Assembly: GCF_964194155.1 (NCBI RefSeq)
Contig: NW_027596099.1
Location: forward strand, 2,418,001 to 2,482,000
Source of the DNA: Cetorhinus maximus
Lineage: Eukaryota
Direction: 5' to 3'
DNA length: 64,000 bases
Under the pieces are notes generated by a model. It was not told where the DNA came from. It was given only the letters and a program-made list of their open reading frames with translations, and ran no database searches. The position numbers and the translations under genes were made by a program. Positions within the stretch are counted from its first letter, which is position 1. Each line of letters begins with the position of its first letter. Shown here one piece after another: positions 12,946-48,383 of the stretch.

Positions 12946-13850
12946 TCAATGGGTATTCAGCTGTAATTTGCCTAATTTTACGCACAGTTTCACAAGGTAC
13001 TGCATTCCGCTCTTCAGCTCCTCCCTAAACTTAGCCTGTGTCAGCACATAAATGAATGTGTTTGTGCAGCAACTGAGGGCCGCAAGCATGGATCCAACTG
13101 ACTCAAGCACATTTGTGCCTGAATTCCATGTGATTGTTACATGAGGAGAGATAATATATATAATCGGAGTCATCCAGAGCAATATAAAGCTGCCGGTTAT
13201 ACTGAAGAGTAAAATAATGGACTTTCTTCGGCTTTCTATTTCAGAATCCTTGTGATGTTCTCCATTGCTGCAACCGCGGAGACCCCTGCGAACTTTACTG
13301 GCCACCAAAATACGTCTTGCCGTCAAAACATTTAGCAACAAAATTAGAATGAATGGGACACATGGGGTCAAGGTAAGGGTAAATAAGTCAAATGCGGCCC
13401 ATTCAGCCGAAATGAAAAATGTCTGTTTTACAACACAACCACGATTTATATTGTCCATTATATACGCAGGTTCATATGCAAAATACCAGGGAATGTTTAT
13501 CGAACAACTCAAAACACTCACCACTGATATGACAGCTACCGCTGTTATCTCCGTGCAATATTTTTTTCGCAGCTTCTTACAACATATGACCACAAAACGA
13601 TCGAAGGTGAACACCACTGTTAACCAGACGGAGGCTGATGTGACTACATAAGTCACTGTCACTGTTAGATGGCACATCGTGCTCATGGTCAAGAAGGAAA
13701 CAGGGAAATAAATATTCAGCATATTCTCCAGCAGGACTTCAGTACAAACAACCAGGAGATCCGCCGCGGCCATTGCGATCATATAGTATGTAATACATTT
13801 GGAGAGGCCACACTTTCCTCGAGAAAGAATCATAATAGCAACAACATTAA
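12946..13850 (-). CDS. GPR139/GPR142-like class A GPCR, copy A, coding exon 2
   Basis: Seven-TM pattern with motifs AMAAADLL, SVWLTVVFTFDRF, NIPWYF, CCTNTFIY and KFREEL. A polypyrimidine tract plus acceptor (ctcttacag|TT) sits at 13851. Exon is 905 nt and joins exon 1 in phase 1 to give 324 aa. Confidence 0.93.
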
Positions 13851-16800
13851 CTGTAAGAGAGGAATAGAGGGAGCAGGAGATAGACGACACAGATTAACGT
13901 GATTAATTTTCTTCCTGTTGCAGCAAAGGATCCTTCATTTGACCTAAATATGCACAGTCTGCTTTCCGAGGTGAACCTGTTCTAATTTTAAACTGGACCG
14001 ACTGAAAGTGGATAGGAAAGGGAAACTTCAGTTGATAATTCCTCTTTTGAAAGGAACATCTTCAACGTAGACAGGACAACTATTGTTCAATAACGATTGA
14101 GATTGCTGAGGGCGAATGTGACCTGGACAATTTGAATACAGACAAACGGCTTGGCATGGTGAATATTAAAAGTTAAATGGGAGGTGTAAAGTGTCAATTC
14201 ATGTGTGTTGGTAAAATGTGAAGTTGTAAACGAATGCGCAAAATAGAATCTGGGTTAAGTAGAGTTATACTCTGGAAGAGATAGTGGTGAAATGCATGCT
14301 GGGTGGTCTATAAATGTGATAAGTACTGGGAAGGATTGCTTTGCAACAGGACTTACAGCTTGAAGGTAAAATATTGCCATGGGGCACGAACGTACTCTGA
14401 ACATTTTGTGAGGGTAAAGATGGAATGGTAAAAACACAGGAACAGAAAATGGTCACTGAGCTACATAAAAGACAACGTTAGATGAGGCCGAATGCAAGTT
14501 TACACAGGCGTCATTACAGTTGCGGTACAATGTCAATCAGTACAAGGTGACATTCTTATGCAGGTTCTCAGGGAGAAGTTTTATTCGGGGATGAGAGCGG
14601 ATCAGTCCTGTGTTTTAAGTCAGACTGAGTAAGGTGAGATTGATATGCTGGCTCGGCATTGTGCAAGAATATTTCAGGTGAATGCATTGCTAATTGATTG
14701 CATAAAGAGTGAAGCAACATTGCTATGCAGAATGGGTGCAGTCAGTGCTGATCAAGAGGGCAGTTTAATGGCGTAATGGGAACGGTGACATTGCTAACAG
14801 ATTGAGTGGGCAATGGGGCACATTTCTTACAAAGCATGGTGAATGAGCAATTCAATGATGTTATTATACTGAAGTCATAACTAGAGTTTTGATTCCGGGT
14901 GGACAGGAGAGAGTTCCCATTAGTTGATCGGATGCAAAACAAATCACTTTGTTGTCGAAAGGGCAGAATTGAGTCGCTTGCGCCTCAAGCACAGCATCCG
15001 TGCGAAGTGATTTGAAATGTGAAGCTTAAAATTTATTTTTCCTGGTCACCAAGTGCAGAAAATCACGATAATGATTGACCATGATGGGCACATCGATTTG
15101 AGGCTGTAGACTAATATATGTTCAGAAAACTGAAATTGCGAATTGTCGTTTACCTGATGATAAAGACTTAACACCTAACACAGCCAACTTTAAATTAATA
15201 TCCTCTACAGCTTATTTCATTTCAGTTTGGCCAGGCGCATAAAACCCATGAATCTTAGCATTATTTGTTAAAATGCATTTTTTTTTTCAGAATGCAGGAA
15301 CCTTTTTAGAGAATTAGCGAAGCTATTCAATGCTGCATTATTATACAGAGGATTAACTTCAGACATTTATACTGATTACTGATTAAATTAAATGATCCAT
15401 TTAAGTCAAGCGAAATTGAAGTGAGCCTCAGAAAATCACGGTTGCATCATGATTTCTACTGTTTACTTCTTAAATGTCCATTTGAATTTTGAAGAGTAGA
15501 CTTTCTAAATGAATCTCACTGATCTAATGTGCAGCTGCCAGATATGTAATAACTTGATGCGCACGTTTATTAATTATTATATGCATTTCCAAGAAAGTTA
15601 AATAACTCTGGTCTGAATTAATGTTAATATTAATATTCGGTTCGCTGCCGAAATTTTCTTTGTAGTTCTGGTGGCTTTGCTATAGGATAGGATGTCTTGC
15701 TAGTGGCAACGGTGCAGAATAGCTTTCCGACTGAAATAACCGGTCAGATTCGGGAGGCACAGATTAGGGAATGGAAAATGCACATTCTCAAAATAATGGG
15801 ATGAGTAGATAAAGAATTATTTCAAGTACCAACTGTTTTCAAGGCTATGCAACATGGTGCAGACTGAAGGTAGATTTTTCGCAAACTTGAACTTAGGGAA
15901 ATAACAATGCATTGAACGTCTATAAAAGGGGTGGGGAATTAACATTTTGTATCATTTTATTTCAGTAGGTTGTTGGGTAATGATTCAGAAGAACTTTGAA
16001 TGAAGTAAGGCGAATTATTCGGTTAAAGATAAACAGCTTTTTACATTTTTGTATCAGATTGCAAGTTGGCAAGCTTTAACCACACAAACAAAAAAATATC
16101 TATTTGCGTTACATAGACAGCCCAGTTGGCAGCCTCCGATTCACAATTCTCTAACTTGAATGCAAGCATCAAACATTGATTGACTTCATGGAGCTGTAAA
16201 CGATAATCAGAAACAGCCTTGAAAACGCCAGGCAATGGATAAAAATTAAAGTTTGAGTTTCTATTGACCATGTAGGATTCACTGGAAAAAGTGGAAGCAT
16301 TATTAATCAAAGCTATTTTGATACAATTGCAGCTTAAAAAAGATGTCAAAAATGAAAATTGACCGTCATTTGCCCGATACCTATTATTATTTGAGCGAAC
16401 CTAATATATATATATTCCTACAATAACATGCATATAAACTGAGAGACATTATTATCCGTGCGCTATTGTGAATTATACAAAGATGGTTAGCCATAATATC
16501 AGCATTTGAAACTGTACTGACCAGCACTGTAAATAAGCAAAAACAGTTTAAACATTACAGAACTTTAAACAATTACATATTGAAGCAGCCAATGTTTGAA
16601 CAAATTAATTATCAAAACTATTATCCAATAAATTATCAGAATATTCCTAGAATTTTCCTCCGAATTAAATGTTGAAATGCATCAGGAATGAACCACCCAA
16701 TTACCTACCGAATGAAATAGTGACCTATCCAAACCATTATCCACTATATCGCTTGCAAATTCAATATACAGTCATCAAATATATTATCAACAGTATTCCC

Positions 16801-18499
16801 TGCTAAATGAACTAGAGAAATGAACATGTATATATGCTACAGAATTACCCATTTCTCTCTGCAACTGCAATCTCCTTCTGACCTGTTATTAATTTGCTGT
16901 TTGGGATAAGGAACATGGAGCTGGTGTAGTGCACTTTGGTTTATGTGCCTCTTGGTGTCGTTACTGCAAACACCTGAGTCTGAAGAAGGACAGACCGATG
17001 GAGTTTCCTCCACGGTCCCAAATCCATATCACTTTAACAGCAATGTTCTATTCGCAATTTAAGTGCCAAATAACAAGTTTCTATGGCATCCTTTGCCTGC
17101 AAAACACATCCTTAAGGGGTTATTCATTTCAGTCAACTTGTGAATGTCATGGTGAACGCGCCACAGAGTGTGTCCCACTGAATCGTGCTTGTGGTTATGA
17201 CGCATTGTTGAACGCTCGACAGCAGCAGTTACACTAGAGATGTGAGACAAATCCTCTGGTGCAGGTTCAAAACACTAATCGTGATTTAAGATCATAAAGC
17301 AACATTACAATCAGGAGACAACGTTTTTCGGCTGCGTGAGATTGGAGCAATGTAAAATTAGACCTTTTCCTACTCACCCTCCCTTAGAAAATCTCCCGCT
17401 CTACAATTCATTAAATTCCCACGGAGAGGAGCCATTGAGTGATGCAAAATGGGGTCCGCGTCGAATCGGCAGTGAAAGCCTGAACACCGTGCGGCAGAGT
17501 GTAATGCTGTGAACAGAAAGTCGGTATGGCTGCAAGCTCAACACCACCTGCTCTCAGAAACTGATTTTCCAAAAAATGTTTTTCATTGAAAGCTCAGGCA
17601 AGAAATAAAAAAATGAAAAGTAAACATGAAGGCGCTGCCACCTTCCCCAGCACAATTTGTTGCTACATTTAATCATGGTCCCGGAGGCAGAACCTCTTTT
17701 CCGCGCGATTCTCGTCTGATGGTAGCTGCCCAGAAACATTTTTTTCTCTCTCGTCTGGACTACGGCAAGTGCAAAGCACGAATCAAGAAATGATACGATT
17801 GTTTCGTTCACAAACTAAATAACTTGCTAATTAGTAACTTGTAAAAGGTTCTCCACCTGCAACTGGGAGATTCATGTACGTGACGTCATTATACCTGATT
17901 CACGTCATTGATCTTCGTGCGGATTCGGCATTTTTGTGGGGGTTGGGTGGTGGGGAGTGGGGTTTTGGTGGGTGAGGTGGGGGTGGTTGGGGGGGCGGGC
18001 GGGGGGGTTGTATTTCCCGGCGTAAAAAACAGCCAATCCTTTTGGTTAAAGATTTAGACATTCAGGAATGAATTCAAAATATACGTTCTCAGTTAGGGGC
18101 CAATGTACTCCGAAATAATTTACATTTAAACATGCATTTTGTAGTTAATCTTTGTTGAATTGGAACAAAAGAAACAGCCAGGACCGTCATTTCAATACAA
18201 AAAGGACATCAATATTCATAGATTCGTCATCATACAACATTTTCTTATCTTTCGGTATATTGACAAGATTAGCACTTTTATTTCTGTTTTCACTAATTCT
18301 TCTTGAAAATAAGGCTTTTCTAGTGTTGCAGGTCATGTGAAGCGGGAGCAGACACCATGCTGTGAGCGATGGATTTCCAGGTTCTTGACCCAGTGACAGT
18401 CAAGGAACGGTGATGTATCTCAAAGTCAGCTTGGTGTGTGACTTGGAAAGGATTTTGTAATGAAAAGTGTTCCCATGCCTCTTCTACTCTTGTCCTTCC

Positions 18500-20150
18500 A
18501 GACTTTCGTGGTCAAATGCACAAACAAAGGAACTTTGCCGACATCTGTCATGTGTGCAGAGCAGCATCGATCATACCTAACAACACGTCATAACCTGGTG
18601 AACTGCAAGACAGGGCTACTTGCAACCAAAACAGCGTATTCAGCATGAGAAAGACAGGGCTCATTGATCCCCCTTCCAAATAACGAAAGTTCAGCTCCCA
18701 AGTCCTGTCACAGACGCCTTGAATGGTGGTGGAAAGTTCTGCACCTCACTGGTGGGCGGCTTCCACCAATATACCCATCGGCAATGATTGTGGAGCGCAG
18801 CGCACCAGTGCATATACATGGCTGAAGAATTTGCAGCCACATTCCCCTGAAGTGACGGGTAGATAACCATCCCGGCCTCCTCCTACCGATGACAAGCATC
18901 ACAGATGCCAGTCTTCATACAATGTGATTTTCAGCACTTGAATTTAAGGAATGACTGAAGGAACTGGACGATGCAGAGGCTTTGGGTCATTTGAGATGAT
19001 GCCAGAAGTGCAGGAGATCAGTGCTGCTGAATAAATCTTCCTATCGAAGCTGGTAAGGTGCATCTAAATTACTGGTATCTATGCGAAAATGTGAGCATTT
19101 TCACAGGTATGCCTATCCACAAAAAAACACGACAAATCCAACGAATCTAATTGCAGCCCCATCTGCCTACACTTCCTCATGATCGAAGTGATGAAAAGTA
19201 TAGTGGACAATGCTTTCAATCGCCGCGTATTCGGCAGTAAACTGCTCACTGACGCTCACTTTTTGCATCGTGCGAGCTCCAGGTCTCGGTTCGGCCTTGG
19301 TCCAAACATTGTCAAAAGTGCTTTATTCAAAAGGTGAGGAGCGAGCGGCTGTGTTTTATATCAAGACAACATTTGTCACACAATCGTATCAAGGAGGGCT
19401 ATGAAAATTGCAGTCAATAACAATAAGGGGTAACTTCCAAATTGCTTGGAGTTATATATACCAAGCAAAAAGTTTTTTGTTTTTTTTTTGTTTTGCAGGT
19501 GAATCATCCCAGCCCCATGACATAACTGGGCGAGAGCCTGAGGGCAGTGTCCTGAGCCCAACCATCTTAAGCTGTTGCATCAATGAACTTCTCTCCATTA
19601 TAAACGCAGAAGGAGTTTAGTGTAGTGGGGAGGGGTTGGGAAGTGGGAGGGGCTTGTGTGCGCTGATCATTGTTCAAAGTTCAGCACCATTCGCGACACA
19701 ACAGATGCTGATGAAATCCGTGCCCGTGTGCATCAAGACCTGGGCAATAGCCAGACTTGTGCTGAAAGATGACAAATAATATTCGCCACAACAAAATTAA
19801 AAGGCAATGACCACCTGCACCAAAATAACATCCAACAAAGTACCGTTGAGATTTAATGGCATTAGCATCAATTAATACATCATTTTCTACATCCCTGGAC
19901 AAAGCATTGACAAGAAACTGTGACTACAAGGGCAGGTCAGAATCTCAGAATGCTGTTGTGAGAAACACACACCCAACTCTCCAAAACCTTTCCTCCATCT
20001 AAAATGCACAAATCAGGAGTGTGATGGGATACACTACACCTGTCCAGATGATTTACGCTCCTATAGAATGCAAGGAAATTGAATTAATCCAGGACAAAAC
20101 AGACTGCTTGATTTCCAATCATTCGGTAAACTTAATGATTCAAGCCATTT
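18500..20150 (+). mobile_element. Decayed CR1 LINE in the intron (duplicate at about 44200-45810)
   Basis: PEGSVLSPTILSCCINEL (decayed PQGSVLGPTIFSCFINDL) at about 19540, with CR1 ORF2 C-terminal sequence downstream. Confidence 0.8.
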
Positions 20151-21099
20151 ATCCTTATATGAATAATTCTTCTTACTGCTTTTAAAGTTCATATGCATCA
20201 TCAGCAATCATCTGAGTGAAATAACCTTATCTAAAAGGTGAATTGATCCATCCAATTTCTCGGTATCGCTCAATTGCATTACTGCTTTCCTAAATACCAT
20301 TTTGCAACAGTTTCAGTGTGCACAATCTTTCAGATCCTTGAGAGCACGTGGTACTTAAATGAAATCTCATGACATCATGTAATACATGGGCAAGGAATAT
20401 TGCCTCCTGCTGTCCACCTCCCGTTCCCATCGGCGGATGAATCAATGATCATGAACCAAGGGGAATGAGACGGGAAAAAAAAAGTGCTTTACTTCGGGGG
20501 GCTTCGATATCTGTGAGCAAGAGAGGATCGCTAGCTCCACTAATGGCCGAGCTGGCCGAGGCATAAAGATAACTGCTAGACTGGGACTTTGGCAGGTGGT
20601 CAGGGAACCAACCAGGCGCAAAATTGAATTCGCTCCACCAAATTAACCATCACATGTGCATCTGTCCATTAAAGGATTGATAGGAATGACCACCGCACGG
20701 TCCTCGTGCAGAGGAATTCCACCTTCACATTCGGGCTTCTCTCCACCGTTTTTTGTGAGACAACCATTGTGCTAAATGGGGTAAATTTCACCCTGTTCAA
20801 CAACTCAAAAGTGCGCATTCACGAGACACTGTGGACCATCAGCTGCAGATGATTTGTGCAGAAGCATGATTTGTAACTCCAAGCCCAGCGTATCCCCAAC
20901 TCTGCAATTTCCATGTGCAGTGTTTATGGTGATGTCTGTGGTGCCGGTCAAGCATTCTACTTTTCTCCTTTGGTGCAGATTTCATTCGGTGTTGCTTTAG
21001 CTCTGGACAAGGAATGTTCAACAGGTTACTTCTTGAATTACTGGGATTTAGATGGGATTGTCCTATGTGGAGTCATTGATGAGACTCATCCTCTGCTTT

Positions 21100-21505
21100 C
21101 TGGAGCATGGGCAAAAATGAAGTGATCTCACTGAAGCATTCACCTTTCTTATAAGTTTCGGTGGTGTAGATTATTGATGGATGATTCCCCTGGCGGGTCT
21201 GTCTAAAACCAGGAAAAGCAATATCAGAATAAGAGGTCTGCATTTAGGACTGAGATGAGGAAGAATTTCATCACTCAGGGTGGGGTAGATTTTCGAAATA
21301 ATGTACTGCACCCTCGGCAGATTTGCAGTCATTGAGTTTGTTGAAGGTGCCGATGATTTGATTTCTCAATATTAAATGCATACAGATATCTGAGATAGTG
21401 CATGGAATATCGTGGAGGCATATTTTCAGCCATGACATATTTGAGTAGTGGAGCACCCTCGTGCGGCCAAATAGTCAACTTCTACTCGTATTTCCTATGC
21501 TCCTC
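21100..21505 (+). mobile_element. CR1 3' end fragment (duplicate at about 46780-47165)
   Basis: catttaggactgagatgaggaagaatttcatcactcaggg (FRTEMRKNF.TQ), followed by a CR1-type tail ending ctactcgtatttcctatg. Confidence 0.7.
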
Positions 21506-21794
21506 TGTCCCTTTGTCAGTGCCACCATGTAACGTGGCAATGTGAGTTTCCCAAATCCACAGGGGATTCCGACAATGCTTAATATCATTCCACTGCAATT
21601 CCCAATGTAAATCAGTAATATTTGGAAGCAGGGTTTTTAACAGCAAGAAGTGGAGGGCTAGAAACTGAAATGTGCTGAATAATGAGAACCAGATAACTAT
21701 TCGGAGTGCTACTGTGTTCCAAAATCGGACCACCTCAGTCTCAGTTAGAAACCTCCGTGCTGAAATAGATGTTTGACTACTTACGTCCCGCGTC

Positions 21795-22150
21795 AGTACT
21801 TGAGAACAAACTTCTCGGCTAATGCTCCATTGCCGTAGTGAAGTAGTTCTGCACTATCGGACGTTGTAACTTTCAGAACAGATGTCAAATCGATTCATAG
21901 GGTAAACGTCAAAGAATCTATGCCACTATTTCGCTGAACAACATTGTCGTAGCCCCTTGCGTCGTGACCAGTATTTAAACCTCGGCTAAAGAACACAAAA
22001 ACGGTCATATTGTCATTGTCAACTTGCTGCTTGTGGAAGCTTCCCGACCAAAAATTTCCGGTCACCTTTTGCGTTACTGCAGTGACCACACTTCATGCAA
22101 ATTCATTAGGGTGGTCGATAAATGAGGCTATAGAAATGCATGTATTTCAA
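21795..22150 (+). mobile_element. DeuSINE (SacSINE1/AmnSINE-like) remnant (duplicate at about 47445-47795)
   Basis: Colinear with the Deu-domain consensus as I recall it: acttgag...ctgcactatcgga...ctttc...acgtcaaagaatctatgccactatttcg...cagtgaccacacttca...gctatagaaatgca. Confidence 0.7.
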
Positions 22151-22666
22151 TAGAAAACTGACTAAGACATCGGAATGTCTTCAGCGCACACAGCAATCTG
22201 TTTCACCCAGAGTTCCAGATATCCTCTCTGCATACAGATTAGTAAAAGCATCGCTGTGGTAATGAGTATGTGATTTTACAGGGATTCCGTTCCTTTAAAT
22301 ATTCGAAAATGGATGAAGACCATTAGCAAAGGCTTCAAGTATTTGAAGCAGAATTTTGCAGGATGCGAATTTACCTCTGCACAGATTTTCACAGATTGTG
22401 TTTTCTACAAGTTTAAACTCGGTTTGCAGTTGATTATGACAATAATTGCAGAGCCCACCCTGTTACATGACATTCTCTAAAGCAAGAATAAGGTGTTAGC
22501 AGTGGATACCACGGAGTGAGAGATACAGAACAAGAAGAAATCTGTTAAAGTTATGGTTAAACATACGTCCCTGCTTTGATTACTCCCCAATAGTAAAGAA
22601 ACAATTCCATGTTATCGGAACGCCAACATCCATTTATACAGGTAATGGTTGTATTTAGGCTCTTAC

Positions 22667-22736
22667 CAGGAACACCAATAGCCGCGAGAATAGGATAGTA
22701 AATGGCTTTTATCTGGTGAAGTATCACTTCTCCCAT
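22667..22736 (-). CDS. GPR139/GPR142-like GPCR, copy A, coding exon 1
   Basis: ATG at 22736. Encodes MGEVILHQIKAIYYPILAAIGVP plus 1 nt, then the donor CCTG|GTAAGA. Supplies the N-terminal half of TM1 missing from exon 2. Intron is 8816 nt. Confidence 0.9.
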
Positions 22737-22999
22737 GTTTATGAGGAGATGTCTTTCCTGCAGAGATGGATGCACAAGATGGAATGAACGTCTGAGCTGA
22801 AGCGTAAAAATCCCCTTCTTCTTTAAATTCATTTCAGGAAAATAAAATAAACACGTTAAAATCACAGGAGATTTGGAGGAAATGCCACATTAATTATTCT
22901 AGGGCATCAGGGTAAAACTGGCAAGACAGCATTCGTAACAGGGAACAGAGAAAAGCTGTTAACTTTACCTAACATTAAACCATTAGTTAACTAATCAAA

Positions 23000-23295
23000 C
23001 CCACGGCCGCTAAGATCTAGAAAGTCAAAGGCAACATGACCATGGGAACACCACTCGCTGAACGTTCCTCTCCCAGCCACTCATCGCCCTGGTTCGGAAA
23101 AATATCGCCGTTCCTTCACTGTCTCTGTGTCAAAATAATGGACCCCCACCACCACCCGCCCCGCTAACAATACCGTGGGTGTAACTGCTCCACAAAAACC
23201 GCAGCAGCTCACCACCGACTTCACAAGGGGAATTAGAGATGGGCAATAATTGCTGGCCCTTTCATCGTTGCCCTCATCCATGAATGGAAATAAGG
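23000..23295 (+). mobile_element. CR1 3' end just upstream of exon 1 (duplicate at about 48645-48940)
   Basis: gcagcagctcaccaccgacttcacaaggggaattagagatgggcaataattgctggcc is the CR1 3' UTR core, also seen at 58425-58510. Confidence 0.7.
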
Positions 23296-24822
23296 ACAGA
23301 AATATATATTGTTAGTCCGAGAGCATGTTAATAAACGTACATCGGAAAACGAGAGCTTCGAGAATGGGTTTGTAAATGGCCCGTATCTGATGAAGTACAG
23401 CAAATTATATCCTCGGTGAGAAGCGCTAACTCCTGTTGAAACAGATACACCGAGCCTGTTGGAAAACATGAAATGTGACATTCAGAGAAGCTGTCATGTA
23501 GGCAGCACATAAATCCCCATGCGCGCATTCATGTCCCCTAAAGAAATCAATTAGTTTCAGTCATTGAACAAACAGGTTACGTCAGTCGCTGTCATTGTGA
23601 AAGGAACCGTTTCGAAGTGACACGTCGAACATTGGAATGATGTGTGCGGTCAGTACAATTGAAAGGGCTATATTTTAACGAGTAGCGGGTAGATCCCATA
23701 GTGGATAGTCACGGAGGGAAATGACTAACCAACAGAGCGATGTTGGGAATCAAATCGTTACTAATTTAGATCAAATTGATTCGAGGAAACTCAATTCGCC
23801 TGAACAGCCAGGAGAAGTAGTGGGGAAATTTCAGATGTTCTCCACTGTTTTGTGTTTCGGGCCCTATTCTATGTTCCAACAGGGCACATGGCTGATGTAT
23901 GTCTTTGTCATTTAATCTTCCAGAGGGAACTCATACGCTGCCCAGATCTTTCCGTGGATTACTCTGGCAATGACATTTCCGTCAGTGACTTGACCTACAT
24001 TCTGTGTCGTTGCACATAAATTTGCACCATTCTGCCTCGAAATTATAAACGCAACCATAGGACCTGCAAGGTTGGCGTTGGTGGTGACCTGATCCGCAAT
24101 AGAAAGTGTTCGAGAAGGATTTTGTTTTCTGAACCGAAATATTTGAAAATAATGCGTTCAAAACAATCCGACCCCATACACCTTTAGTGACGATTCCCCA
24201 CGCCATACACTCCTCCTGCTCACCCACTCACATACTCCATCCAGAGTGATGCTTGAACTGAATGAAAAAGAATGTTTTGAATAAAGTAATGGGATATCTA
24301 GAGTACATCGCTGGGAGGGTATTCCACGATTAACATTTAACTCTTGGCCCTCAAATGTCTTCTGCAGACAATCATTAGCAGATGGATGCACTGCTTAAAA
24401 TGAACCCGAATCGACGGCGCCTTCTGCTTTGGTGTGGGCTGCATTTCAAACAAGCACCAAAAACAGAATAGTTTAGGTCAGTAGGTCATTCGGCCCCTTG
24501 AGCCTGTTCTGCAACTCGGAAAACTCATGTTTTATATGGTCGTGTCGTCAGCCCCGCTATCCTGCCTGCGCTCCCCCAACCAGCGTCGTACACCGGCCCT
24601 CTCCATAATTGGTCAATAAGTCTCCCTTATTGGTCAATAATCTATCCAACTCAGCCATGATTGTGCGACAGACCTGATCAGATGATCAATGTCGTTCGCT
24701 CTTTGGTGATGACGTCATAATCAGATCGAGGCAAAGTGGTTCGAGTGAACCCATTTCATGTCACTTGGCTCGGCATTTTGAGGAATCACTCACAGGCTTA
24801 CCATCTTTCTTCCTCATTGGAA

Positions 24823-33127: not shown

Positions 33128-33130
33128 AAT

Positions 33131-35072: not shown

Positions 35073-36218
35073 GTAATGGAAATTTGCGTGCCTTCACATG
35101 TTATTGCTTTACTGAGTTTCCCAGTTTGGAGCTCACCGAAACGCATTGCGCACATTTCAGTTGACACTCTGTCCATCACAAGCCTACTTCATCCTTGAGC
35201 AGCATCTGGTACAGGCGACGTGGAGCTGTGAACCTGCCTGGAAGGAGTCGTCGTCACTTCGCCCTGGATGCTCAATCGTGGGCAGGATGTGAAGTACGTC
35301 GGCCTCAGCGATTAAGCAAAATCTTTTCAAAATTGTGCTGCCGCCGTCTCTAAAGTCTGTTTTTTTAATGTAAGGAGCCCTGGATCCACATGGAGATGCG
35401 TTATTTTGCGTAAACGTTTCGACGCTCACAAGGTGGAAGAAGACATAATAGTGGCGGAAATGTCCGTTGATCACAGTTGATTTTTATAGGCAGAACTGAC
35501 CAGAAAATTTGCTTATGCTATATTTTATCAAATCTGCCTTCTGTCCGAATTGCTGTGTAGATGCTGCATAGATCGATCGCCATGTGGAAATGAAAACAGG
35601 TTTGCGAATCAATAGCGTGAGCACGTGTTCCACCTCGCACAATGCGAACAAGGACTTGTCTCCCCGTCGCGGAACTGAACCCCGGTCACGCGAGTGATAG
35701 GTGGGGACACTCACCACTATACTATCGAGGAGTGGGCGGCTGATTCGTTCCAAGGGAGCTAGTGATATTCCAACTTGCACTGAGATCTTCATTTTGAAGC
35801 GATCGTTACACAGTTTGCCTGCAAAATGCAGACAATTAAATTCCATGGGTTGGAACTGGATGCATCTTCTTTCTTGAAAATCGGTACATGTCGTCAGTTC
35901 CTCCCGTTGCCCAGAGGCACAGATGCTTCTTCCTCGGCTGTTTCCCTCATTTTCTCACTCGCACAGTCTCGCAAAGAATTCACAAGGAATTCCAGTCGTC
36001 CATCTGCTTCAGACGCCTATCTCCTGCAGCCACACTCCCCGCTCCAATTCCATAATCCACACAAACCAAGTCATAGTGTCGGATAGAAAACTTCACATGT
36101 AAACGGTAAAGGAAGACGTGTCTTCATTCATTTCCACTCAGCAACGTAAGTAAACTTGTCAGATGCAACGTTTCCAAATCACCGGATGTCGCTCTCTGCA
36201 TTTTATTTCCTATTTGGT
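35073..36218. repeat. Relic of the tRNA-Asp repeat unit
   Basis: 35073-35825 aligns with 1447-2200, and 35712-36218 aligns with 1-501. Confidence 0.85.
35660..35731 (-). pseudogene. tRNA-Asp pseudogene (anticodon GTC changed to ATC)
   Basis: Reverse complement TCCTCGATAGTATAGTGGTGAGTGTCCCCACCTATCACTCGCGTGACCGGGGTTCAGTTCCGCGACGGGGAG. Clearly tRNA-Asp derived; anticodon stem is broken and the B-box is altered. Confidence 0.88.
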
Positions 36219-36419
36219 AAGTAAAAGGCGCTCCTCTCCCAGATCAGAGATTTATAAAAGTGTGGGAGCTAAATGGCTGGAGCATACTTTTCTACGAAGC
36301 AGGAAGTATTATCTAGGACAGTGATTTGCCTATAGTAGAACAGAGCTGTCAGGCTGGAGAAATGGGAAGCGCAGTATCTGTGCAGCCGCAGAGACAATGA
36401 TAATATAATATTATTCATT

Positions 36420-37370
36420 AAGGTGTTGGCGTCAATCGTTCGCACAGCATATTTATTGCCCAGACGTAGGTACCTTTGAGAAGGTGGTGCTGAGCTGCCT
36501 TCTTGAATCGCAGCAGTTCCTCTGGTCCCTTACACCCATTGTGCTGTTAGGGAGGGAGTTCCTGGAATTTAACCCAACGACAATATAGGCACAGGGATAT
36601 CATTTCAAATCAGGCTAGTGAATAGCTTGGAAAGGAACTTGCAGATCGTTGTGTTCCCATGCACCTGCTGATCATTTTCCTTATAGATGGTTGTGGTCGT
36701 GGGTTTGGAATGTAATGTCTAAGGTGATTTCGAGAATTCCTGCAGTGCACCTTGCAGATCGTACACACTGCTGCTATTGTTCGTCGGTTTTGGAGGGAGT
36801 CAACGTTTATTGATGTGGTGTCAATCAACGGCTGATTTGTCCCAGATGCTATAATGCTTCTTGACCGCTATTGGAGCTGCACGCATCCAAGCAAGTGGAG
36901 AGTATACCATTACAATCCAATTCCGTGCCTTGTAAATAGTGGAAAGTAATTGGGGAGTCAGGAAGTGTGTTACTCGCCGCAGGATTCCGTGCATCTGAAC
37001 TGCATTTGTAGACGTTGTGTTTATATCGCCAATCCAGTTCTGTTTCTCGTCAATGGTAACCGTTATAATGCTGATAGTCCGACAATCGGCGAGGGTAATG
37101 CCATTGAATGTTAACGGGCGATGGTTTGATTTTCTCTTTTGGAGATAGAATTGCCTGGTACTTGTATGGTGTGAATGTCCTTTGCCACTTGTCAGCAAGA
37201 GCCTGAACACGCTGCATTTGGCCATTACCTCAGGAGTCACGAATTATGTTGAACATTGCCCAATCATCAGCGAACATCCGCATTTCCGACCTTAAGATGG
37301 AGAGAAGGACATTGATGAGGGAACTAAACATCGTTGAGCCTTGACGCTACACGAAGGAACTCAGGTTCCC
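36420..37370 (-). mobile_element. CR1 LINE 3' portion (duplicate of 10450-11370)
   Basis: Minus ORFs 36610-37240 encode GILRRVTHFLTPQLLSTIYKA...YSPLAWM, a CR1 ORF2 C-terminus. Confidence 0.8.
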
Positions 37371-38961
37371 TCAGGAACTAAAACGACTGGGAGCAGAGGA
37401 GTTGGGGTGCATATTTAGAAAGTGCAGGCGCCGAAAATCCAGAGCAAACATTTAGAAAAGTGTGCTAGCTGAGTCGGCGGTGTGGGCATTTAGTAATTCA
37501 GGCCCTAAGCAGACATTGCGAGGAGATCAGAAACATTGTAGCTACTCAAAAGACGGATCACGTATCCTTTGCTGTAAGAGCAATTGAAGATTAACAATAA
37601 TTGTTTTTCTTGCCAGTTATGCCCCTCATGCCATGACCGAATCTGTCGTGTTTTTAATGTTAATTTATTCAAGGACAGCGGTTGTAGTTTTCTATTTAAT
37701 GCCACTTTAATTGGCAGTTGTTCTGGCCAAACATTATACCGGGTGATTAGGGTGGTTAATTAGGAATCGTCAAGACGATTTTAGATTAATATCTGAGAAA
37801 AGCGAATGACGCAGAAAACAGGGAGAAGCCGGAGGAGTGGCTGCCGGCTGCAACTTCCTTCAAAGCGACAGTAAGGAAAGGACGGGTCAAATGGTCTGCT
37901 TCTGTGCTGTAGCCTGTCTATGGTTGCATTCTACGAACGGCATATAAGTTAAGTAAATTATAAGAATATGCGACGAGAGGAATTACATTATATTTTTTCA
38001 CGTTCAATACGCGTAGGTATACAAAGAAGGAAGTTGATGGTAGGGCCATGTGTGATCAGAAGTTTCTTGGCTGGGAATTCGTGCTGATACCTGGTTGAAG
38101 TGTCACTCGCTATATTGATGAGTGGATATTAAGTTAAACATATTAAAACATTCGAGAATTATAATAACAGCCATTTGATGGCTGTGAATGTGAAAGGACC
38201 AGATAACATGAAAGAGAGAGTGTTGTGAATGAGCATGTGGCGAGGAGGTAGACGCATTAATCGTCAAAAAACAAGCATGAGCTATTTGCGCTTTCAAATG
38301 AATCGTAGGGAAATCGAATTTAAAAGTTTTGAATCCAATATATAGAACCGTCTCTCAGCCCTATCGATCATGTGAATGTGTGACCAATTGCGCCAATACC
38401 CGTCCTTACACAAAACACGTGATGACCAGGCCTTCCTTGTTTTAAACATGCGAGGTATATGGAACTCTGAGAAGCAGCTCATTGTGCAACTGTCCGATAT
38501 TTGGAGGGTGCCAGACTTTATTAAACATGTTCTGAAAATTCCCCCTATGTAGTATTTGGCCCAGAAGAGACGTTGTAGGAAATTTGTGACGTTTGTCCAT
38601 GGTACATTTGTCGAGTTATCGTGATCAAGCTGGTGATGTTTGGGGTGTTCTCTTGTTGATCAGAACAACGGTTCCAATGAACACCAGGCTGTCAGAATAT
38701 GGCATCACAATTCACCCTTTCAAACTCCTCCACGCTAACAGGGGCTGTTCAGTATTTTTATTATTATTTATTATTATTATCACAACTTACAATTCACCAT
38801 TGATTACACCATACTGTGAAAAGTAGTTCAATTTGACATGATATTATAAACGAGCATTTTTAGTAGGATATTATTTTATCCAGTGTGCTTAAACGTTGTT
38901 ACAAGCATTTTGATAACATGAGTGAATTTCAGGGCACAAAGTTTATGTCCCCCTGTATATG

Positions 38962-39866
38962 TCAATGTGTTTTCAGCTGCAATTTGTCAAATTTTACGCC
39001 CAATTTCACAAGCCACTGCATTCCGCTCTTCAGCTCCTCCCTAAACTTAGCCTGTGTCAGCACATAAATGAATGTATTTGTGCAGCAACTGAGGACACCA
39101 AGCATGGATCCAATTGACTCAAGCTCATTTGTGTCAGAATTCGATATGTTTGTTACACGCAGAGAGATGAAATATATAACCGGAGTTGTCCAGAGGAATA
39201 TAAAGCTGCCGGTTATACTGAAGAGTAAAATAATGGACTTTCTTCGGCTTTCTATTTCAGAATCCTTGTGATGTTCTCCATTGCTGCAACCGTGGAGACC
39301 CCTTCGCAATTTACTGGCCGCCAAAATACGTCTAGCCGTCAAAATATTTAGCAACACAATTAGAATGAATGGAGCACAAGGGGTCATGGTAATGCTAAAC
39401 AAGTCAAATGCGGCCCATTCAGCAGAAACGAAAAATGTCTGTTTTAGGACACACCCACGATTTACATTGTCCATTATAAACGCAGGTTCAAATGCAAAGT
39501 ACCAGGGAATGTTTATCAAACAACTCAACACACTCATCACTGATATGACAGCTACCGCTGTTCTCTCCGTGCAATATTTTTTTCGGAGCTTCTTACAACA
39601 TATGACCACAAAACGATCGAAGGTGAACACCACTGTTAACCAAAAAGAGGCTGATGTGACTACATAAGTCAGTGTCACAGTTAGATGGCACACCGTGCTC
39701 ATGGTCAAGAATGAAACAGGGAAATACATATTCAGCGTATTGTTCAGTATGACTTCAGCACAAACAACCAGGAGATCCGCCGCGGCCATGGCGATCATAT
39801 AGTGGGTAATACATTTGGAGAGGCCACACTTTCCACGGGAAAGAATCACAATAGCAGCAACATTAG
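38962..39866 (-). CDS. GPR139/GPR142-like class A GPCR, copy B, coding exon 2
   Basis: Intact seven-TM frame with DRF and NTFIY motifs. Acceptor ctcttacag|CT at 39867. Exon is 905 nt; the junction reads GVP|ANVAAI. Confidence 0.93.
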
Positions 39867-42800
39867 CTGTAAGAGAGGAATAGAGAGAGCAGGAGATAGA
39901 CGACACAGATGGACATAATTAATTTTCTTCCTGTTACAGCAAAGGATCGTGCATTTGACCCAAATATGCACAGTCTGCTTTCCGAGGTGAATATGTTCTA
40001 AATGTAAACTGGACCTACTCAAAGTGGATAGGGAAGAGAAACATCAGTTGATAATTCGCCTTTTGAAAGGAACATCTTCAACGTAGACTGGACAACTATT
40101 GTTCAATAACGATTGAGATTGCTGAGGGCAAATGTGACCTGGACAATTTGAATGCACGCAAACGGCTGGGCATGCTGAATATTAAAAGATAAATGGGAGG
40201 TGTAAAGTGTCAATTCATGTGTGTTGGTACAGTGTGAATTTGGAAATGAATGCGCAAAATTGAATCTAGGCCAAGTAGAATTATACTGTGGAAGAGCTAG
40301 TGGTGAAATGCGTGTTGGTTAGTCTATAGATGCGATAAGTACTGGGAATGATTACTGTGCTAGAGGACTTACAGCTTGAAGGTAAAATATTGCCCAGGGG
40401 CAAGAACATACTTTAAACGCTTGAAGGGGTAAAGATGGAATGGTAAAAACACAGGAACAGAAAATGGACACTGAGCTACATAAAAGACCAGCATAGATGA
40501 GGCCGAATGCAAGTTTACACAGGAGTATTCACAGTGGCGGTACAATGACAATCAGTACAAGGTGACATTCTTAAGCAGGTTCCCATGGATAAGTTTTATT
40601 CGGGGATGAGAGTTGATCAGTCCTGTGTTTTAAGTCAGACTGAGTAATCTGAGATGGATATGCTGGCTGGGCAGTGTGCAGGATTATTTCAGGTGAATGC
40701 GTCGCTAATTCATTGCAGAAAGAGGGAAGCAACATTGCTATGCAGAATGGGTGCAGTCAGTGCTTATCAAGAGGGCAGTTTAATGGCGGACTTGGAAAGG
40801 CGACATTGCTATCAGATTAAGTGAGCAATATTTATTGGCCATTGGGGCACATTTCTTGCAAAGCATAGTGAATGTCCTATTGGATGATGTGGTTCTAGTG
40901 AGGTCATAACTAGCATTTTGCTTGCGAGTAGACAGGACAGTGTTCCCATTAATTGATCGGCTGCAGAACAAATCACTTTGTTGCCGAAAGGGCAGAAGGG
41001 AGTCACTTGCGCCTCAAGCACAGCATCTGTGCGAAGTGATTTGAAATGTGAAGCTGAAATTTGATTTTTTCTGGGCACCAAGTGCAGAAGGTCGCGATAA
41101 AAATTGACCATGATGGGCACTTCGATGTGACACTGTAGTTAAATATATGTTCAGAAAAGTGCAATTACGAATTGTTGTTTACCTGACAATAAAGACCTAA
41201 CTCCTAACACACCCATGTTTAAAGTAACATCCTCTACAGCTTATTTCATTTCAGATTGGCCAGGTTCATAAAACACGTGAATCTTAGCTTTATTTCTTAA
41301 AATGCATATTTCGTTTTTTCAAAATGCCGGAACCTTTTTAGAGAATTAGCCAAGTTATTCAATGCTGCATTATTATAAAAAAGATTAACTTCAGACATTT
41401 ATACTGATTACTGATGAAGTTAAATGATCTCTATAAATCAAGTGGAATTGACGTGAGCCTCAGATAATCACGGTTGCATTATTATTTCAGTTGTTTACTC
41501 AGTAAAGAGCCACTTGAATTTTGAAGAATATATTTTCTGACTGAATCTCACTGAACTAATTTGTAGGTGCCAGATATGTACTAACTTGCTGCGCACGTTT
41601 ATTAGATTATTTACGACATTATAAAGCAAGTTAAATAACTCTAGCCTGAATTATTATCGAAAATAGTTAATCGACTCGCTGCCGAAATTTTGTTTGTAGT
41701 TCTGGTGGCGCTGCTATAGGATAGGATGTCATGGCTCTGGCAAGGGTGCAGAATAACTTTCCTACTGAAATCTCCGGTCAGATTTGGGAGGCACAGAGTA
41801 GTGAACGGATAATGCACATTATCAAAATAATAGGATGAGTAGATAGAGAGTTATTTCAAGCACCAACTGGTTTCAAAGCTATGCAACATGGTGCAGACTG
41901 AACGTAGATATTTCGCAAACTTGAACCCAGGGAAACAACAATGCATTGAACGTCTATAAACGTGTTGGTGAATTAACATTTTGGATCATATTATTTCGGT
42001 AAGTTGTTGGTTAATGATTCAGATGAACTTTGAATAAAGTAAGGCGATTTAGTCGGATAAAGATAAACAGCTTTTTTACATTTTTGGATCAGATTTCAAG
42101 TTGGCAAGCTTTGGCCACGCAAACAAAAAAAAATATCTATTCGCGTTACATACACACTTATCATACATACATACACATTATCAGCATTTGAAACTGTACT
42201 TTTCAGTACTTTAAATAAGGAAACATTTTAAGACATACATTTATTCAAACAATTATATGATGAATCAGCCAATGTTTCAACAAATTAACTATCAAAAATA
42301 TTATCCAATAAATTATCAATATATTTCCAGAATTTTCCTCTGAATTAAGCGTTGGAATGCCGCAATAATGAACCACCCAATTATCTCCCTAATTAAATAG
42401 TGACCTATCCAAAACATTATCCACTATTTAGCCAGCATATTAAGTATACAGTCAACAAATATATTATCAACATTATTCCCTGCTAAATAAACTAAAGAAA
42501 TGAACATGTATATATGCTACAGAATTACTCATTACTCTCTGCAACTGCAATCTGCTTCTGACCTGTTATTGATTTGCTGTTTGGGATAAGGAACATGGAC
42601 CAGGTGTGCAGTGCACTTTGGTTTATGTGCCTCTTGGTGTGGTTACTGCAAACACCCGAGTCTGAAGAACTACAGAGCGATGGAGTTTCCTCCAGGGTCC
42701 CAAATGCATATCACTTTAACAGCAACGTTCTATTCGCAATGTAACTATAAAATAACAATTTTCTATAGCATCTTTTGCATGCAAAACAGATCTTTAAGAT

Positions 42801-42999
42801 TCATTTCGGCGAATTTGTGAATGTTGTGGCGAACGCACCACCGAGTGTGATCCACTGAATTGTTTTTTTGATTATGACACTTTGCTGCAGGCTCGATAGC
42901 AGCAGTTACACTAGAGAAGTGACAGAAATCCTCCGGTGCAGGTTCAAAACGCTAATCGTTATTTAAGATCATAAAGAAACATTATAATAATTAGACAGC

Positions 43000-43728
43000 G
43001 GCCTGGATTTTACGTTTTTCGCAGCGTGAGTTTGGAGAAATGTAAAATTATCCCTTTTCCTACTCACCCTCCCTTAAACCACCTCCCGCTCCAAAATTCA
43101 TTAAATTCCCACGGGGAGGAGCCATTGAGTAATGCAAAATGAGGTCTGCGTCCAATCGGCATTGAATGCCTGAACATCGTGCGGCAGAGTGTAATGCTGT
43201 GATCAGAAAGTCGGTATGGCTGCAAGCTCAAGACCACCTGCTCTCAGAAACTGTTTTTTAAAAAAGTTTTTCGTTTAATGCTCAGGCAAGAAACAAAAAA
43301 GTGAAAAACAAACATGAAGGCGCTGCCACCTTCCCCAGCACAATCTGTTGCTACATTTAATCATGGTCCCGGAGCCAGAACCTCTCATCCGCGCGATTGT
43401 CATTTGATGGTAGCTTCCTAGAAACATTTTATTTTTCTCTCGTCTGGGCCACGGCAAGTGCAAAGCACGAATCAAGAAAACATACGATTGTGCCGTTCAC
43501 AAACTCAATAACTTGCCCTTTAGAAACTTGTAAAAGGTGGGCCCGCCCGTTCTCCACCTGCAACTGGGAGATTCATGTACGTGACGTCATTATACCCGAT
43601 GCACGTCATTGATCTTCGTGCGGATTCGGCATTTTTCACGGGGGTGGGTGGTGCGGAGTGGGGGTTTTGGGGGTGAGGGTTGGTGGGGGAGGGGTGGCGG
43701 CTGAGATTTGCGGACGAAAATTCCAGCC
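43000..43728. mobile_element. MITE / non-autonomous DNA transposon in the intron (copy A at about 17320-18034 has lost its left TIR)
   Basis: Imperfect terminal inverted repeats GGCCTGGATTTTAC (43000) and CGAAAATTCCAGCC (ending 43728), with a C-rich left and G-rich right subterminal region. No ORF. Confidence 0.55.
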
Positions 43729-46700
43729 AATCGTTTTGGTTAAACATTTAGATATTCAGAAGTGAATCAAAATATACGATCTCAGTTAGGGGCCAGTGTT
43801 CTCCGAAATAATTTACATTTAAACATGCATTTTGTGGTTACTCTTTGTTGAGTTCGAACAAAAAAACAGCCATGGCCGTCATTTCAATACAAAAATCACA
43901 TCAATATTCATAGATTCGTCATCATGCAGCATTTTCTTTTCTTTGGATATATTGACAAGATTAGCACATTTATTTCCGTTTTCACTAATTCTTCTTGAAA
44001 ATAAGGGCTTTCTAGTGTTGCAGTCCATGTGAAGCGGGTACAGACACAATGCTACGAGCGATGGATTTCCAGGTTTTTGATCCAGTGACTGTCAGGGAAC
44101 GGTGATCTATCTCCACGTCAGCTTGGTGTGTGACTTGGAAAGGATTGTGTAATTAAGAGTGTTCCCATGCCTCTTCTACTCTTGTCCTTTCAGTCATTCG
44201 AGGTCAAATATGTCCACAGCAGCAGCGATCAGACCTAATAACGCAGCTTAACCTGGTGAATTGCAAGACAGGGCTACTTGCCAGCAAAACAGCGTATTCA
44301 GCATGAGAAAGACAGGGCTCATTGATCCCCCCACCAAATAACGACAGCTCAGCTCTGAAGTCCAGTCACAGTCGCCTTGAATGGTGCTGGAAAGTTCTGC
44401 ACCTCACTGGTTGGCGGCTTCCACCAATATCCCCATCGGCAATAATTGTGGAGTGCAGCGCACCAGTGCATATACATGACTGAAGGATTTGCACCCACAG
44501 TCACCCTGAAGTGACGGGTGGAGGAACAATCCCGGCCTCCTCTTACCGTTGACAAGCATCGCAGATGCCAGTCTTCATATAATGTGATTCTCAGCACTTG
44601 AATTTAAGGAATGACTGAAGGAACTGGATGATGCAGAGTCAATGGGTCATTTGAGATGATGCCAGAAGCACGGGAGATCAGTGCTGCTGAATAAATCTTC
44701 CTATCAAAGCTGGTAAGGTGCATCTAAGTTAATGGCATCTAGGCGAAAATGTGAGCATTTTCACAGGTATGCCTATCCACACAAAAAAACACGGCAAATC
44801 CAACCAATCTAATTGCAGCCCCATCTGCCTACACTTCATCATGATCAATGGGATGAAAATTATCCTGGACAATGCTTTCAATTGCCAAGTACTCGGCAGC
44901 AAACTGCTCACTGATGCTCACTTTTTGCATCGTGCGAGCTCCAGCTCTCGGTTCGCCTTGGTCCAAACATGGTCAAAAGTGCTTTATTCAAAAGGTGAGG
45001 AGAGAGGGGCTGTGTTTTATATCAAGACAGCATGTGTCACACAATCGTATCAAGGAGGGCTATGAAAATTGCAGTCAATAAGAATAAGGGGTAACTTCCA
45101 AATTGCTTGGAGTTATATATACCAAGCAAAAAGGTTGTTATTTTTTTTTGTTTTGCAGGTGAATCATCTCAGCCCCATGACATAACTGGGCGAGAGCCTG
45201 AGGGCAGTGTCCTGAGCCCAACCATCTTAAGCTGTTGCATCAATGAACTTCTCTCCATTTTAAACACAGAAGGAGTTTGGTGTGGTGGGGAGGGGATGGG
45301 TTTGTGGGAAGGGGGTTGTGTCCGCTGTTCATTGTTTAAAGTTCGGCACCATTCCCGACACAACAGATGCTGATTAAATCCGTGCCCATGTGCATCAAGA
45401 CCTGGGCAATAGCTAGAATTGTGCTGAAAAATGACAGGTAATGTTCGCCCCAACAAAATTTAAAGGCAATGACCACCTGCAGCAAAAGAACATCCAATAG
45501 AGTACCGTTGAGATTTAATGGCATAAGCATCGCTTAAGACCCCATTTTCAACATCCTTGGACAAAGCATTGACCAGAAACCGTGACCAGAAGGGCAGGTC
45601 AGCATCTGAAAATGCTGTGGTGAGCAACACACCCCCGACTCTCCAAAACCTTTCCTCCATCTAAAATGCACGAATCAGGAGTGTGATGGGATACACTACA
45701 CCTGTCCAGATGATTTACGCTTCTATAGAATTCAAGGATATTGACTTAATCCAGGACAAAGCAGACTGCTTGATTTGCAATCATTCCGTAAACTTAATGA
45801 TTTAAGCCATTTATCCTTATCTGAATAATTCTTCTTACTGTTTTTAAAGTTCATATACATCATCAGCAATCATCTGAGTGACATAATCGTATCTAAAAGG
45901 TGCATTATCCATCCAATTTCTCGGTATCGCTCAATTGCATTACTGCTTTCCTAAATACCATTTTGCAACAGTTTCAGTGTGCACAATTTTTCAGATCCTT
46001 GAGAGCACGTGGTACTTAAATGAAATCTCATGACATCATGTAATACATGGGCAATGAATATCCCCTCCTGCTGACCACCTCCCGTTCCCATCGGCGGATG
46101 AATCAATGATCATGAACCAAGGGGAATGAGACGGGAAAAAAAAAAGTGCTTTACTTCGGGGGCTTCGATATCTGTGAGCAAGAGAGGATCGCTAGCTCCA
46201 CTAATGGCCGAGCTGGCCGAGGCATAAAGATAACTGCTAGACTGGGTCTTTGGCAGGTGGTCAGGAAACCAACCAGGCGCAAAATTGAATTCGCTCCACC
46301 AAATTAACCATCACATGTGCAACTGTCCATTAAAGGATTGATAGGAATGGCCACCGCAAGGTCCTCGTGCAGAGGAATTCCACCTTCACATTCGGGATTC
46401 TCTCCACCGTTTTTTGTGAGACAACCATTGTGCTAAATGGGGTAAATTTCACCTTGTTCAACAACTCAAAAGTGCGCATTCACGAGACACTGTGGACCAT
46501 CAGCTGCAGATGATTTGTGCAGAAGCATGATTTGTAACTCCAAGCCCAGCGTATCCCCAACTCTGCATTTTTCATGTGCAGTGTTTATGGTGATGTTTGT
46601 GGTGCCGGTCAAGCATTCTACTTTTCTCCTTTTGTGCAGATTTCATTAGGTGTTGCTGTAGCTCTGCGACAAGGAATGTTCAACAGGTTACTTCTTGAAT

Positions 46701-48313
46701 TACTGGGATTTAGATGGGATTGTCCTATGTGGAGTCATTGATGAGACTCATCCTCTGCTTTCTGGAGCATGGGCTAAAATAAAGTGATCTCACTGAAGCA
46801 TTCACCTTTCTTATAAGTTTCGGTGGTGTAGATTATTGATGGATGTTTCCCCTGGCGGGTCTGTCTAAAACCAGGAAAAGCAATATCAGAATAAGAGGTC
46901 TGCATTTAGGACTGAGATGAGGAAGAATTTCATCACTCAGGGTGGGGTAAATTTTCGAAATAATGTACTGCACCCTCGGCAGATTTGCAGTCATTGAGTT
47001 TGTTGAAGGTGCTGATGATTTGATTTCTCAATATTAAATGCATACAAATATCTGAGATAGTGCATGGAATATCGTGGAGGCACATTTCCAGCCATGACAT
47101 ACTTGAGTAGTGGAGCACACTCGTGCGGCCAAATAGACAACTTCTACTCGTATTTCCTATGCTCCTCTGTCCCTTTGTCAGTGCCACCATGTAACGTGGC
47201 AATGTGAGTTTCCCAAATCCACAGGGGATTCCGACAATGCTTAATATCATTCCACAGCAATTCCCAATGTAAATCAGAAATATTTGGAAGCAGGGTTTTT
47301 AACAGCAAGAAGTGGAGGGCTAGAAACTGAAATGTGCTGAATAATGAGAACCAGATAACTATTCGGAGTGCTACTGTGTTCCAAAATCGGACCACCTCAG
47401 TCTCAGTTAGAAACCTCCGTGCTGAAATAGATGTTTGACTACTTACTTGAGAACAAACTTCTCGGCTAATGCTCCATTGGCGTAGTGAAGTAGTTCTGCA
47501 CTATCGGATATTGTAACTTTCAGAACAGATGTCAAATCGATTCATAGGGTAAACGTCAAAGAATCTATGCCACTATTTCGCTGAACAACATTGTCGTAGC
47601 CCCTTGCGTCGTGACCAGTATTTAAACCTCGGCTAAAGAACACAAAAACGGTCATATTGTCATTGTCAACTTGCTGCTTGTGGAAGCTTCCCGACCAAAA
47701 ATTTCCGGTCACCTTTTGCGTTACTGCAGTGACTACACTTCATGTAAATTCATTAGGGTGGTCGATAAATGAGGCTATAGAAATGCATGTATTTCAATAG
47801 AAAACTGACTAAGACATCGGAATGTCTTCAGCGCGCACAGTAATCTGTTTCACCCAGACTTCCAGATATCCTCTCTGCATACAGATTAGTAAAAGCATCG
47901 CTGTGGTAATGAGTATGTGATTTTACAGGGATTCCGTTCCTTTAAATATTCGAAAATGGATGAAAACCATTAGCAAAGGCTTCAAGTATTTGAAGCAGAA
48001 TTTTGCAGGATGCGAATTTGCATCTGCACAGATTTTCACAGATTGTGTTTTCTACAAGTTTAAACTCGGTTTGCAGTTGATTATGACAATTAGTGCAGAG
48101 CCCACCCTGTTACATGACATTCCGTAAAGCAAGAATAAGGTGTTAGCAGTGGATACCACGGAATGAAAGATACAGAACAAAAAGAAATCTGTTAACGTTA
48201 TGGATAAACATACATCCTTGCTTTGATTACTCCCCAATAATAAAGAAACAATTCCATGTTATCGGAACGCCAACATCCATTTATACAGGTAATGGTTGTA
48301 TTTAGGCTCTTAC

Positions 48314-48383
48314 CAGGAACACCAATAGCCGCCAGAATAGGATAGTAAATGGCTTTTAACTGGTGAAGTATCACTTCTCCCAT
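48314..48383 (-). CDS. GPR139/GPR142-like GPCR, copy B, coding exon 1
   Basis: ATG at 48383. Encodes MGEVILHQLKAIYYPILAAIGVP plus 1 nt, then the donor CCTG|GTAAGA. Intron is 8447 nt. Confidence 0.9.

Follow-up and report, generated by a model that had tools for sequence, protein, structure and literature searches.

Two basking shark receptor genes belong to a very large elasmobranch family distinct from GPR139

GPR139 and GPR142 are class A orphan G-protein-coupled receptors (GPCRs) activated by L-Trp and L-Phe (PDB 7VUG, 9M42). In bony vertebrates, GPR210A/B have been named beside GPR139/142 and three such sets described by Rinne et al. 2019 (PMC6504862; papers are cited here by PubMed Central number, for the part of their text that was available); in that text cartilaginous fish are absent, with 0 matches for shark. 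The protostome MIP/sex peptide, FMRFamide and myosuppressin receptors form the sister group of GPR139/142, according to Thiel et al. (PMC8557429). A paucity of GPCRs has been described in cartilaginous fishes (PMC8455134), and shark repertoires are given as 6–13 olfactory receptor (OR) and 8–43 V2R genes by Syed et al. (PMC10116579), a picture that fits badly with the large olfactory organs of these animals. GPR139 goes without mention in the available main texts of two shark genome papers (PMC11979771, PMC10620051), and no paper describing an elasmobranch expansion was found in the literature searched, whose coverage left out most subscription papers. Here, we analyse a 64,000-nt stretch of the basking shark (Cetorhinus maximus) genome, C41:2418001-2482000, hereafter the window; the assembly comprises 3.99 Gb in 5,087 contigs. 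Gene structure, family size and phylogeny show that it contains two intact, recently duplicated members (genes A and B) of an elasmobranch receptor family of >1,300 loci that is distinct from GPR139. The family is apparently undescribed as a family, its genes being annotated singly under the wrong name GPR139.

The two genes lie on the minus strand and each consists of two coding exons, the second running from the end of transmembrane helix (TM) 1 to the stop codon:
22736-22667, minus strand: first coding exon of gene A (23 codons and one further base), from an ATG at 22736 to a GT donor; the start matches database models
13850-12946, minus strand: gene A exon 2, open frame behind an AG acceptor, Pfam 7tm_1 E 9e-20
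48383-48314, minus strand: gene B coding exon 1, ending in a GT donor
39866-38962, minus strand: gene B exon 2, open frame behind an AG acceptor, Pfam 7tm_1 E 1e-21

Joined at the predicted GT..AG splice sites, the exons of each gene encode 324 aa with zero internal stops, so that the two intact receptors of equal length and orientation described in an earlier note on this DNA are indeed present. The remaining features that the note had read from the sequence also hold: the phase-1 intron directly precedes the TM1 Asn, the short N-terminus has 12 residues ahead of the TM1 Tyr-Tyr-Pro and carries no N-glycosylation sequon (those of gene B are located at N65 and N263), and both proteins have DRF in place of DRY and NTFIY in place of NPxxY. 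Both are class A GPCRs by their 7tm_1 scores of 71.6 and 77.8 bits, against a curated cut-off of 30.5. At E<=0.001 the window proteins match 7tm_1 only in Pfam, with no OR, TAAR, V1R or V2R family match and no Srw. In other elasmobranchs, many database models begin with the identical 12-residue start and are 323–324 aa long, which supports the exon model. Six-frame translation gives long minus-strand frames at 13893-12949 and 39918-38965, and the frame portions 5′ of the acceptors, starting at 13893 and 39918, are intronic. The alternative of a single long exon per open reading frame was rejected, and the note was right to call these upstream starts wrong; elasmobranch database models start at the predicted exon 1. 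No intronless copies were found in the shark's own genome at one mismatch. One contig of a DNA-like run joins ~39874 to 48318, near the predicted splice, and is possibly a processed or intronless copy in the organism concerned. Contigs of a second, putative RNA run from another species (share 0.05) cover the bins of both exons and little of the non-repeat intron, but its longest piece reaches 146 bases into the intron and no splice joint is listed for it; neither run was used as evidence.

The earlier note had proposed tandem birth-and-death expansion, and the expansion proves far larger than proposed. Whole-genome searches, in which motif places were counted in full, found the family's TM3 motif at 1,365 places (control 7), the TM7 motif at 1,003 (control 5) and the TM2 motif at 296 (control 0), which disposes of a low-copy family, the outcome that the note had named as refuting it. 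On chromosome-size contigs (C5 to C36), 60 motif loci picked by hand all match the family profile, and 30 of the 60 have an open exon 2 over >=270 profile positions, a figure that refers to exon 2 only and in which a few of the non-open loci may be clipped by the 1.6-kb edge. The motifs overlap little (by hand count, 13 of the first 100 TM3 places are paired with a TM7 place at the expected distance) and miss many pieces: two contiguous 200-kb stretches on contigs C14 and C16 hold 29 family pieces, 10 of them intact and 14 matching neither motif. The C14 stretch contributes 16 pieces, of which 7 are intact and none has the TM3 motif, and the C16 stretch 13, of which 3 are intact and none has the TM7 motif. 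Hence, 1,365 loci is a floor. Similarity searches at gene level, whose match lists favour intact copies, gave at least 131 scored genome matches for exon 2 of gene B, all >=71% identical and 113 of them stop-free, and at least 127, 122 and 124 matches for queries from three other subfamilies (109, 80 and 102 stop-free; all hand counts, with ~30 rows recurring between the lists of different subfamily queries). We estimate the family total at 1,500–2,500 loci, with several hundred to ~1,000 intact, as a range and not a census. Many arrays begin at contig ends; those on chromosome-size contigs are large by themselves. The mixture of broken and intact copies in the 60 loci and in the C14 and C16 stretches supports birth-and-death turnover.

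At E<=0.001, 1,958 database proteins match the family; the 120 matches listed all come from shark, skate and ray species, and most family members among them carry the RefSeq label ‘probable GPR139’. The best PDB sequence match is human GPR139 (E 3e-8), the nearest solved relative by sequence, at ~21% identity. The GPR139-type TM3 motif has a single match in the genome (locus L031, contig C267), the exon of which is 96% identical to the GPR139 of another shark and 86% to a human entry; it is the true GPR139 orthologue of this genome. The same motif gave no match for a GPR142 gene, for which no dedicated search was made. The genome's own GPR139 has a phase-1 intron at the same position as the window genes, before the TM1 Asn, as expected of the wider GPR139/GPR142 group. 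A tree was computed from 76 rows, hand-chosen from profile-search lists, with two unnamed proteins as the basis of its root. All 39 rows of the family fall into a single clade (99/96) with a low-copy amphibian lineage as sister (100/99). These two group with two further low-copy lineages (99/94) and then with amphioxus (98/88), and GPR139 and GPR142 form a separate clade (100/100). Approximately unbiased (AU) tests on a 31-row subset under a simple model reject the grouping of the family with GPR139 (p 6e-6) and with GPR139+GPR142 together (p 0.002). On the tree, the AU tests and the separate single orthologue, we rejected GPR139 orthology of the window genes, the second outcome that the earlier note had offered as a refutation. 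Shark and batoid sequences interleave in the tree, with deep subfamilies mixing sharks with skates and rays, and the expansion therefore began before the two groups split. No chimaera or lamprey is among the matches listed, with no search aimed at them.

The family differs from GPR139/GPR142, a single conserved gene in each case, in its >1,300 loci, in sequence and in its position in the tree. Its closer relatives were reached by a profile search with 50% representatives, in salamanders, coelacanth, teleosts, bichirs and amphioxus. Orthologues of these low-copy relatives are listed in frogs, caecilians, reptiles, fishes and three sharks, and no mammal or bird appears among the named rows of the 120 matches listed. 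We observed at least three conserved low-copy lineages of GPR139-like orphans in fishes, amphibians and reptiles, automatically named GPR139 (P0346, P0404, P0487, P0331, P0429, P0399): an amphibian one, one from coelacanth, teleosts, amphibians, reptiles and sharks, and one from bichir and anchovy. They probably include GPR210A/B. Like the family they have the short N-terminus and the cysteine pair described below, whereas their copy number looks low among the database matches listed. The single-copy amphibian sister gene offers a tractable way to the ancestral ligand. Farther out, clusters bearing Srw, the domain of a group of nematode chemoreceptors, occur among the Atlas look-alikes and Srw/Srx domains are listed for GPR139, but the window proteins lack an Srw match and their relation to the protostome receptors is distant.

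The ligand pocket has changed with respect to GPR139. At the positions of the GPR139 pocket residues E108, F109, H187, W241, R244 and N271, taken from Vedel et al. (PMC7318219), gene B has T90, Y91, S181, W249, P252 and S277: one of the six is identical (W6.48), Tyr for F109 is a conservative change and the other four differ. With one in six residues kept, the earlier note's argument from the Trp and Phe responses of GPR139/GPR142 is weak and cannot be transferred to the window genes. The pocket columns vary across 30 intact members, with His common at 5x43 (18 of 30). Cysteines are found at the top of TM3 in 27 of the 30 and in extracellular loop (ECL) 2 in 25, an extra TM3-ECL2 pair that GPR139 and GPR142 lack in that alignment; ECL2 and intracellular loop (ICL) 3 are also longer than in those receptors. 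Some features shared with relatives were rejected as signs of chemosensation. The short N-terminus, found also in the low-copy amphibian, coelacanth, bony fish and amphioxus relatives, is therefore ancestral, and DRF and NTFIY were set aside likewise, the NPxxY Pro being missing from GPR139 too. Structure prediction for exon 2 gives a seven-helix fold with a hairpin in ECL2 (pLDDT, the predicted local distance difference test score, 76). Foldseek returned generic class A peptide receptors, GPR139 not being among the matches listed, and is uninformative on the ligand.

Variation is concentrated on the outer face. The 30 members have a median identity of 47%, and their entropy is mostly 2–3.7 bits at the top of TM2 and ECL1, in ECL2, at the top of TM5 and from TM6 through ECL3 to the top of TM7, compared with near 0–1 at the DRF region, the end of ICL3, the base of TM6 and TM7-helix 8. 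A diversified outer face over a conserved inner signalling face is what a chemosensory repertoire should show. Among 25 distinct sequences of the window's subfamily (one stop-bearing sequence was dropped), the nonsynonymous rate dN is 0.074 for the outer and 0.034 for the inner face, and the overall ratio to the synonymous rate, dN/dS, is 0.57. The inner face is under purifying selection (dN/dS 0.46, 95% interval 0.31–0.70), and the outer face is relaxed or mildly diversifying.

The members also have a common layout 5′ of the coding sequence, which in the window is as follows:
23582-23504, minus strand: family promoter module of gene A (profile E 8.8e-6), with a Forkhead-like site, a homeodomain core and a weak O/E-like site
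23359-23397, minus strand: non-coding exon 1 relic on the upstream side of gene A, an 82% match to exon 1
49227-49139, minus strand: family promoter module of gene B (profile E 1.5e-4)
49004-49042, minus strand: exon 1 relic on the upstream side of gene B

The profile was built from the DNA 5′ of exon 1 in six C14 and C16 members, in which the order is Forkhead-like site, homeodomain core, O/E-like half site and TATA box, element names that we assign presumptively. Exon 1 was found in eight of ten 20-kb upstream regions from other subfamilies (nine copies), and seven of the nine copies have a module match within ~250 bases upstream (E 1e-7 to 0.02; best E of the reversed control 0.88). One additional module match was found without an exon. 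In the window, 172 bases separate the module from the relic exon 1 that follows it, and coding exon 1 is a second copy ~840 bases downstream with an acceptor-like site ahead of it, a layout common to all 30 fetched loci of the window's subfamily. A duplication of exon 1 appears to have turned the old exon into a 5′ untranslated exon. Lhx2 and Ebf sites operate in the promoters and enhancers of OR genes (PMC5608512, PMC7804114), and the homeodomain core beside the O/E-like site resembles, by eye only, the Lhx2/Ebf composite probe of Monahan et al. (PMC5608512). We take this as a hint of an OR-like promoter.

Given the very large family, the variable pocket, the fixed signalling face and the common promoter, we lean slightly towards a family that works as a combinatorial chemosensory repertoire. 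Each gene would then be active in a small, scattered fraction of the sensory cells, first of all in the olfactory epithelium and next among chemosensory cells of the mouth or skin. The ligands would be peptides or small molecules carried in the water, held in a pocket that the disulfide-tethered ECL2 closes off, and all members would signal via one common G protein. Tandem arrays, birth and death, short receptors, a variable outer face and, as judged by eye, homeodomain plus O/E-like promoter elements liken the family to OR, TAAR, V1R and V2R genes, from which it differs in its other class A root, its coding intron in TM1 and its match to Pfam 7tm_1 only. A more specific proposal is possible, if short of probable: that this would be a fifth vertebrate olfactory receptor family, in sharks, skates and rays, of mammalian OR size (several hundred to ~1,000 intact genes), with a GPR139-related root and an Lhx2/Ebf promoter code, missed by surveys restricted to OR, TAAR, V1R and V2R genes and hidden by GPR139 labels.

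Several observations weigh against a chemosensory role. The closest low-copy relatives are conserved single genes that are not known sensors. The promoter likeness is degenerate and was judged by eye; the O/E-like site of the window genes is weak and followed by no clear TATA box, two of the nine exons (C21, C34) are without a module match, and the best-kept element is the Forkhead-like one. Ebf together with Forkhead factors also drives B cells. The outer-face dN/dS of 0.72 (95% interval 0.47–1.22) does not demonstrate positive selection and fits relaxed constraint too. A large part of the subfamily to which the window genes belong is on unplaced contigs, among near-identical copies, so uncollapsed haplotypes and satellite-driven amplification may inflate the counts. 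Catshark olfactory neurons appear to be all microvillous and express V2R/OlfC genes (PMC10116579), and the available text on a brain and olfactory library has no GPCR among its 50 top genes (PMC11979771), where sparsely expressed receptors would not be expected.

The foremost alternative is a repertoire of innate immune or barrier sensors on leukocytes or epithelia, recognizing microbial or host peptides, in the manner of the formyl-peptide receptors and MRGPRs that expanded in other vertebrates. The same signature of turnover and outer-face variation would be expected of it; the TM3-ECL2 cysteine pair and long ECL2 hairpin give the proteins a peptide-receptor build, and the Forkhead-like and Ebf-like promoter elements also suit lymphoid cells. 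A further point in its favour is that amidated peptides are the ligands of protostome relatives of GPR139/142 (PMC8557429). However, >1,000 loci far exceeds the known immune GPCR expansions, and the placing of a homeodomain core next to an O/E-like site is that of olfactory genes. Overall we consider an immune role unlikely.

Genome structure bears on a second alternative, in which most of the copies arose incidentally as satellite-rich arrays and chromosome ends underwent segmental amplification, with a modest functional core and many young, redundant, intact passengers. The relevant features of the window are:
10244-24604, no strand assigned: segmental duplicate with gene A, 87–94% in self-blastn against its partner at 36214-50238 with gene B
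24823-32208, no strand assigned: 18-nt satellite array between both gene units, 412 copies over 7.4 kb

The duplicated unit is ~14 kb, in tandem, and introns and flanks were copied along. The proteins of A and B have the same residue at 275 of 324 positions (85%), and their DNA is 91.6% identical with a dN/dS of 0.54. The earlier note had counted A and B as two intact paralogs, and two intact genes they are, but with both inside the tandem duplicate they are not independent. Gene B moreover has four near-identical copies, 99.3–99.9% over 3.9 kb (C41:2456965, C41:80666, C46:542830, C48:603041), each with an A-like gene 23–26 kb off, which may be a very recent block duplication, uncollapsed haplotypes or both. 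Passive amplification agrees with these copies, with the adjoining satellite, with the subfamily dN/dS of 0.57, with half or more of the sampled loci being broken and with the many arrays starting at contig ends. On the other hand, sharks occur together with skates and rays in the deep subfamilies, the signalling residues are invariant and the promoter is shared even among members of only 47% identity, and inner dN/dS is <1. We regard this explanation of the family as improbable; it can apply to recent copies while the core function stays a separate question. The last alternative, additional receptors of the GPR139 kind that respond to Trp, Phe or melanocortin-type peptides in the brain, pancreas or gut, has the best PDB match and the shared intron position to recommend it and is very improbable in view of the low identity, the separate orthologue, the AU rejection and the pocket that was not kept.

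Whatever the family's job, >1,300 mislabelled loci alter the GPCR count of cartilaginous fishes. With the family identified, tissue RNA-seq that already exists can put the question of chemical sensing in sharks to a direct test.

Two minor features of the window remain, and the satellite at 24823-32208 is strand-skewed and the source of many spurious low-complexity open frames. The earlier note had placed a pseudogene of the same orientation among the receptors at 12946-48383; a decayed fragment does exist on the minus strand, outside that interval:
~53257-52932, minus strand: decayed pseudogene fragment from TM1 to part of TM3, the first third of exon 2 (47 bits, E 6e-10 against a family member)

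At 2201-2423 on the plus strand, a 42-nt tandem repeat is 71–80% similar to the stretch immediately upstream of exon 1 in two C16 members; it has no coding exon downstream and is probably the relic 5′ end of another member.

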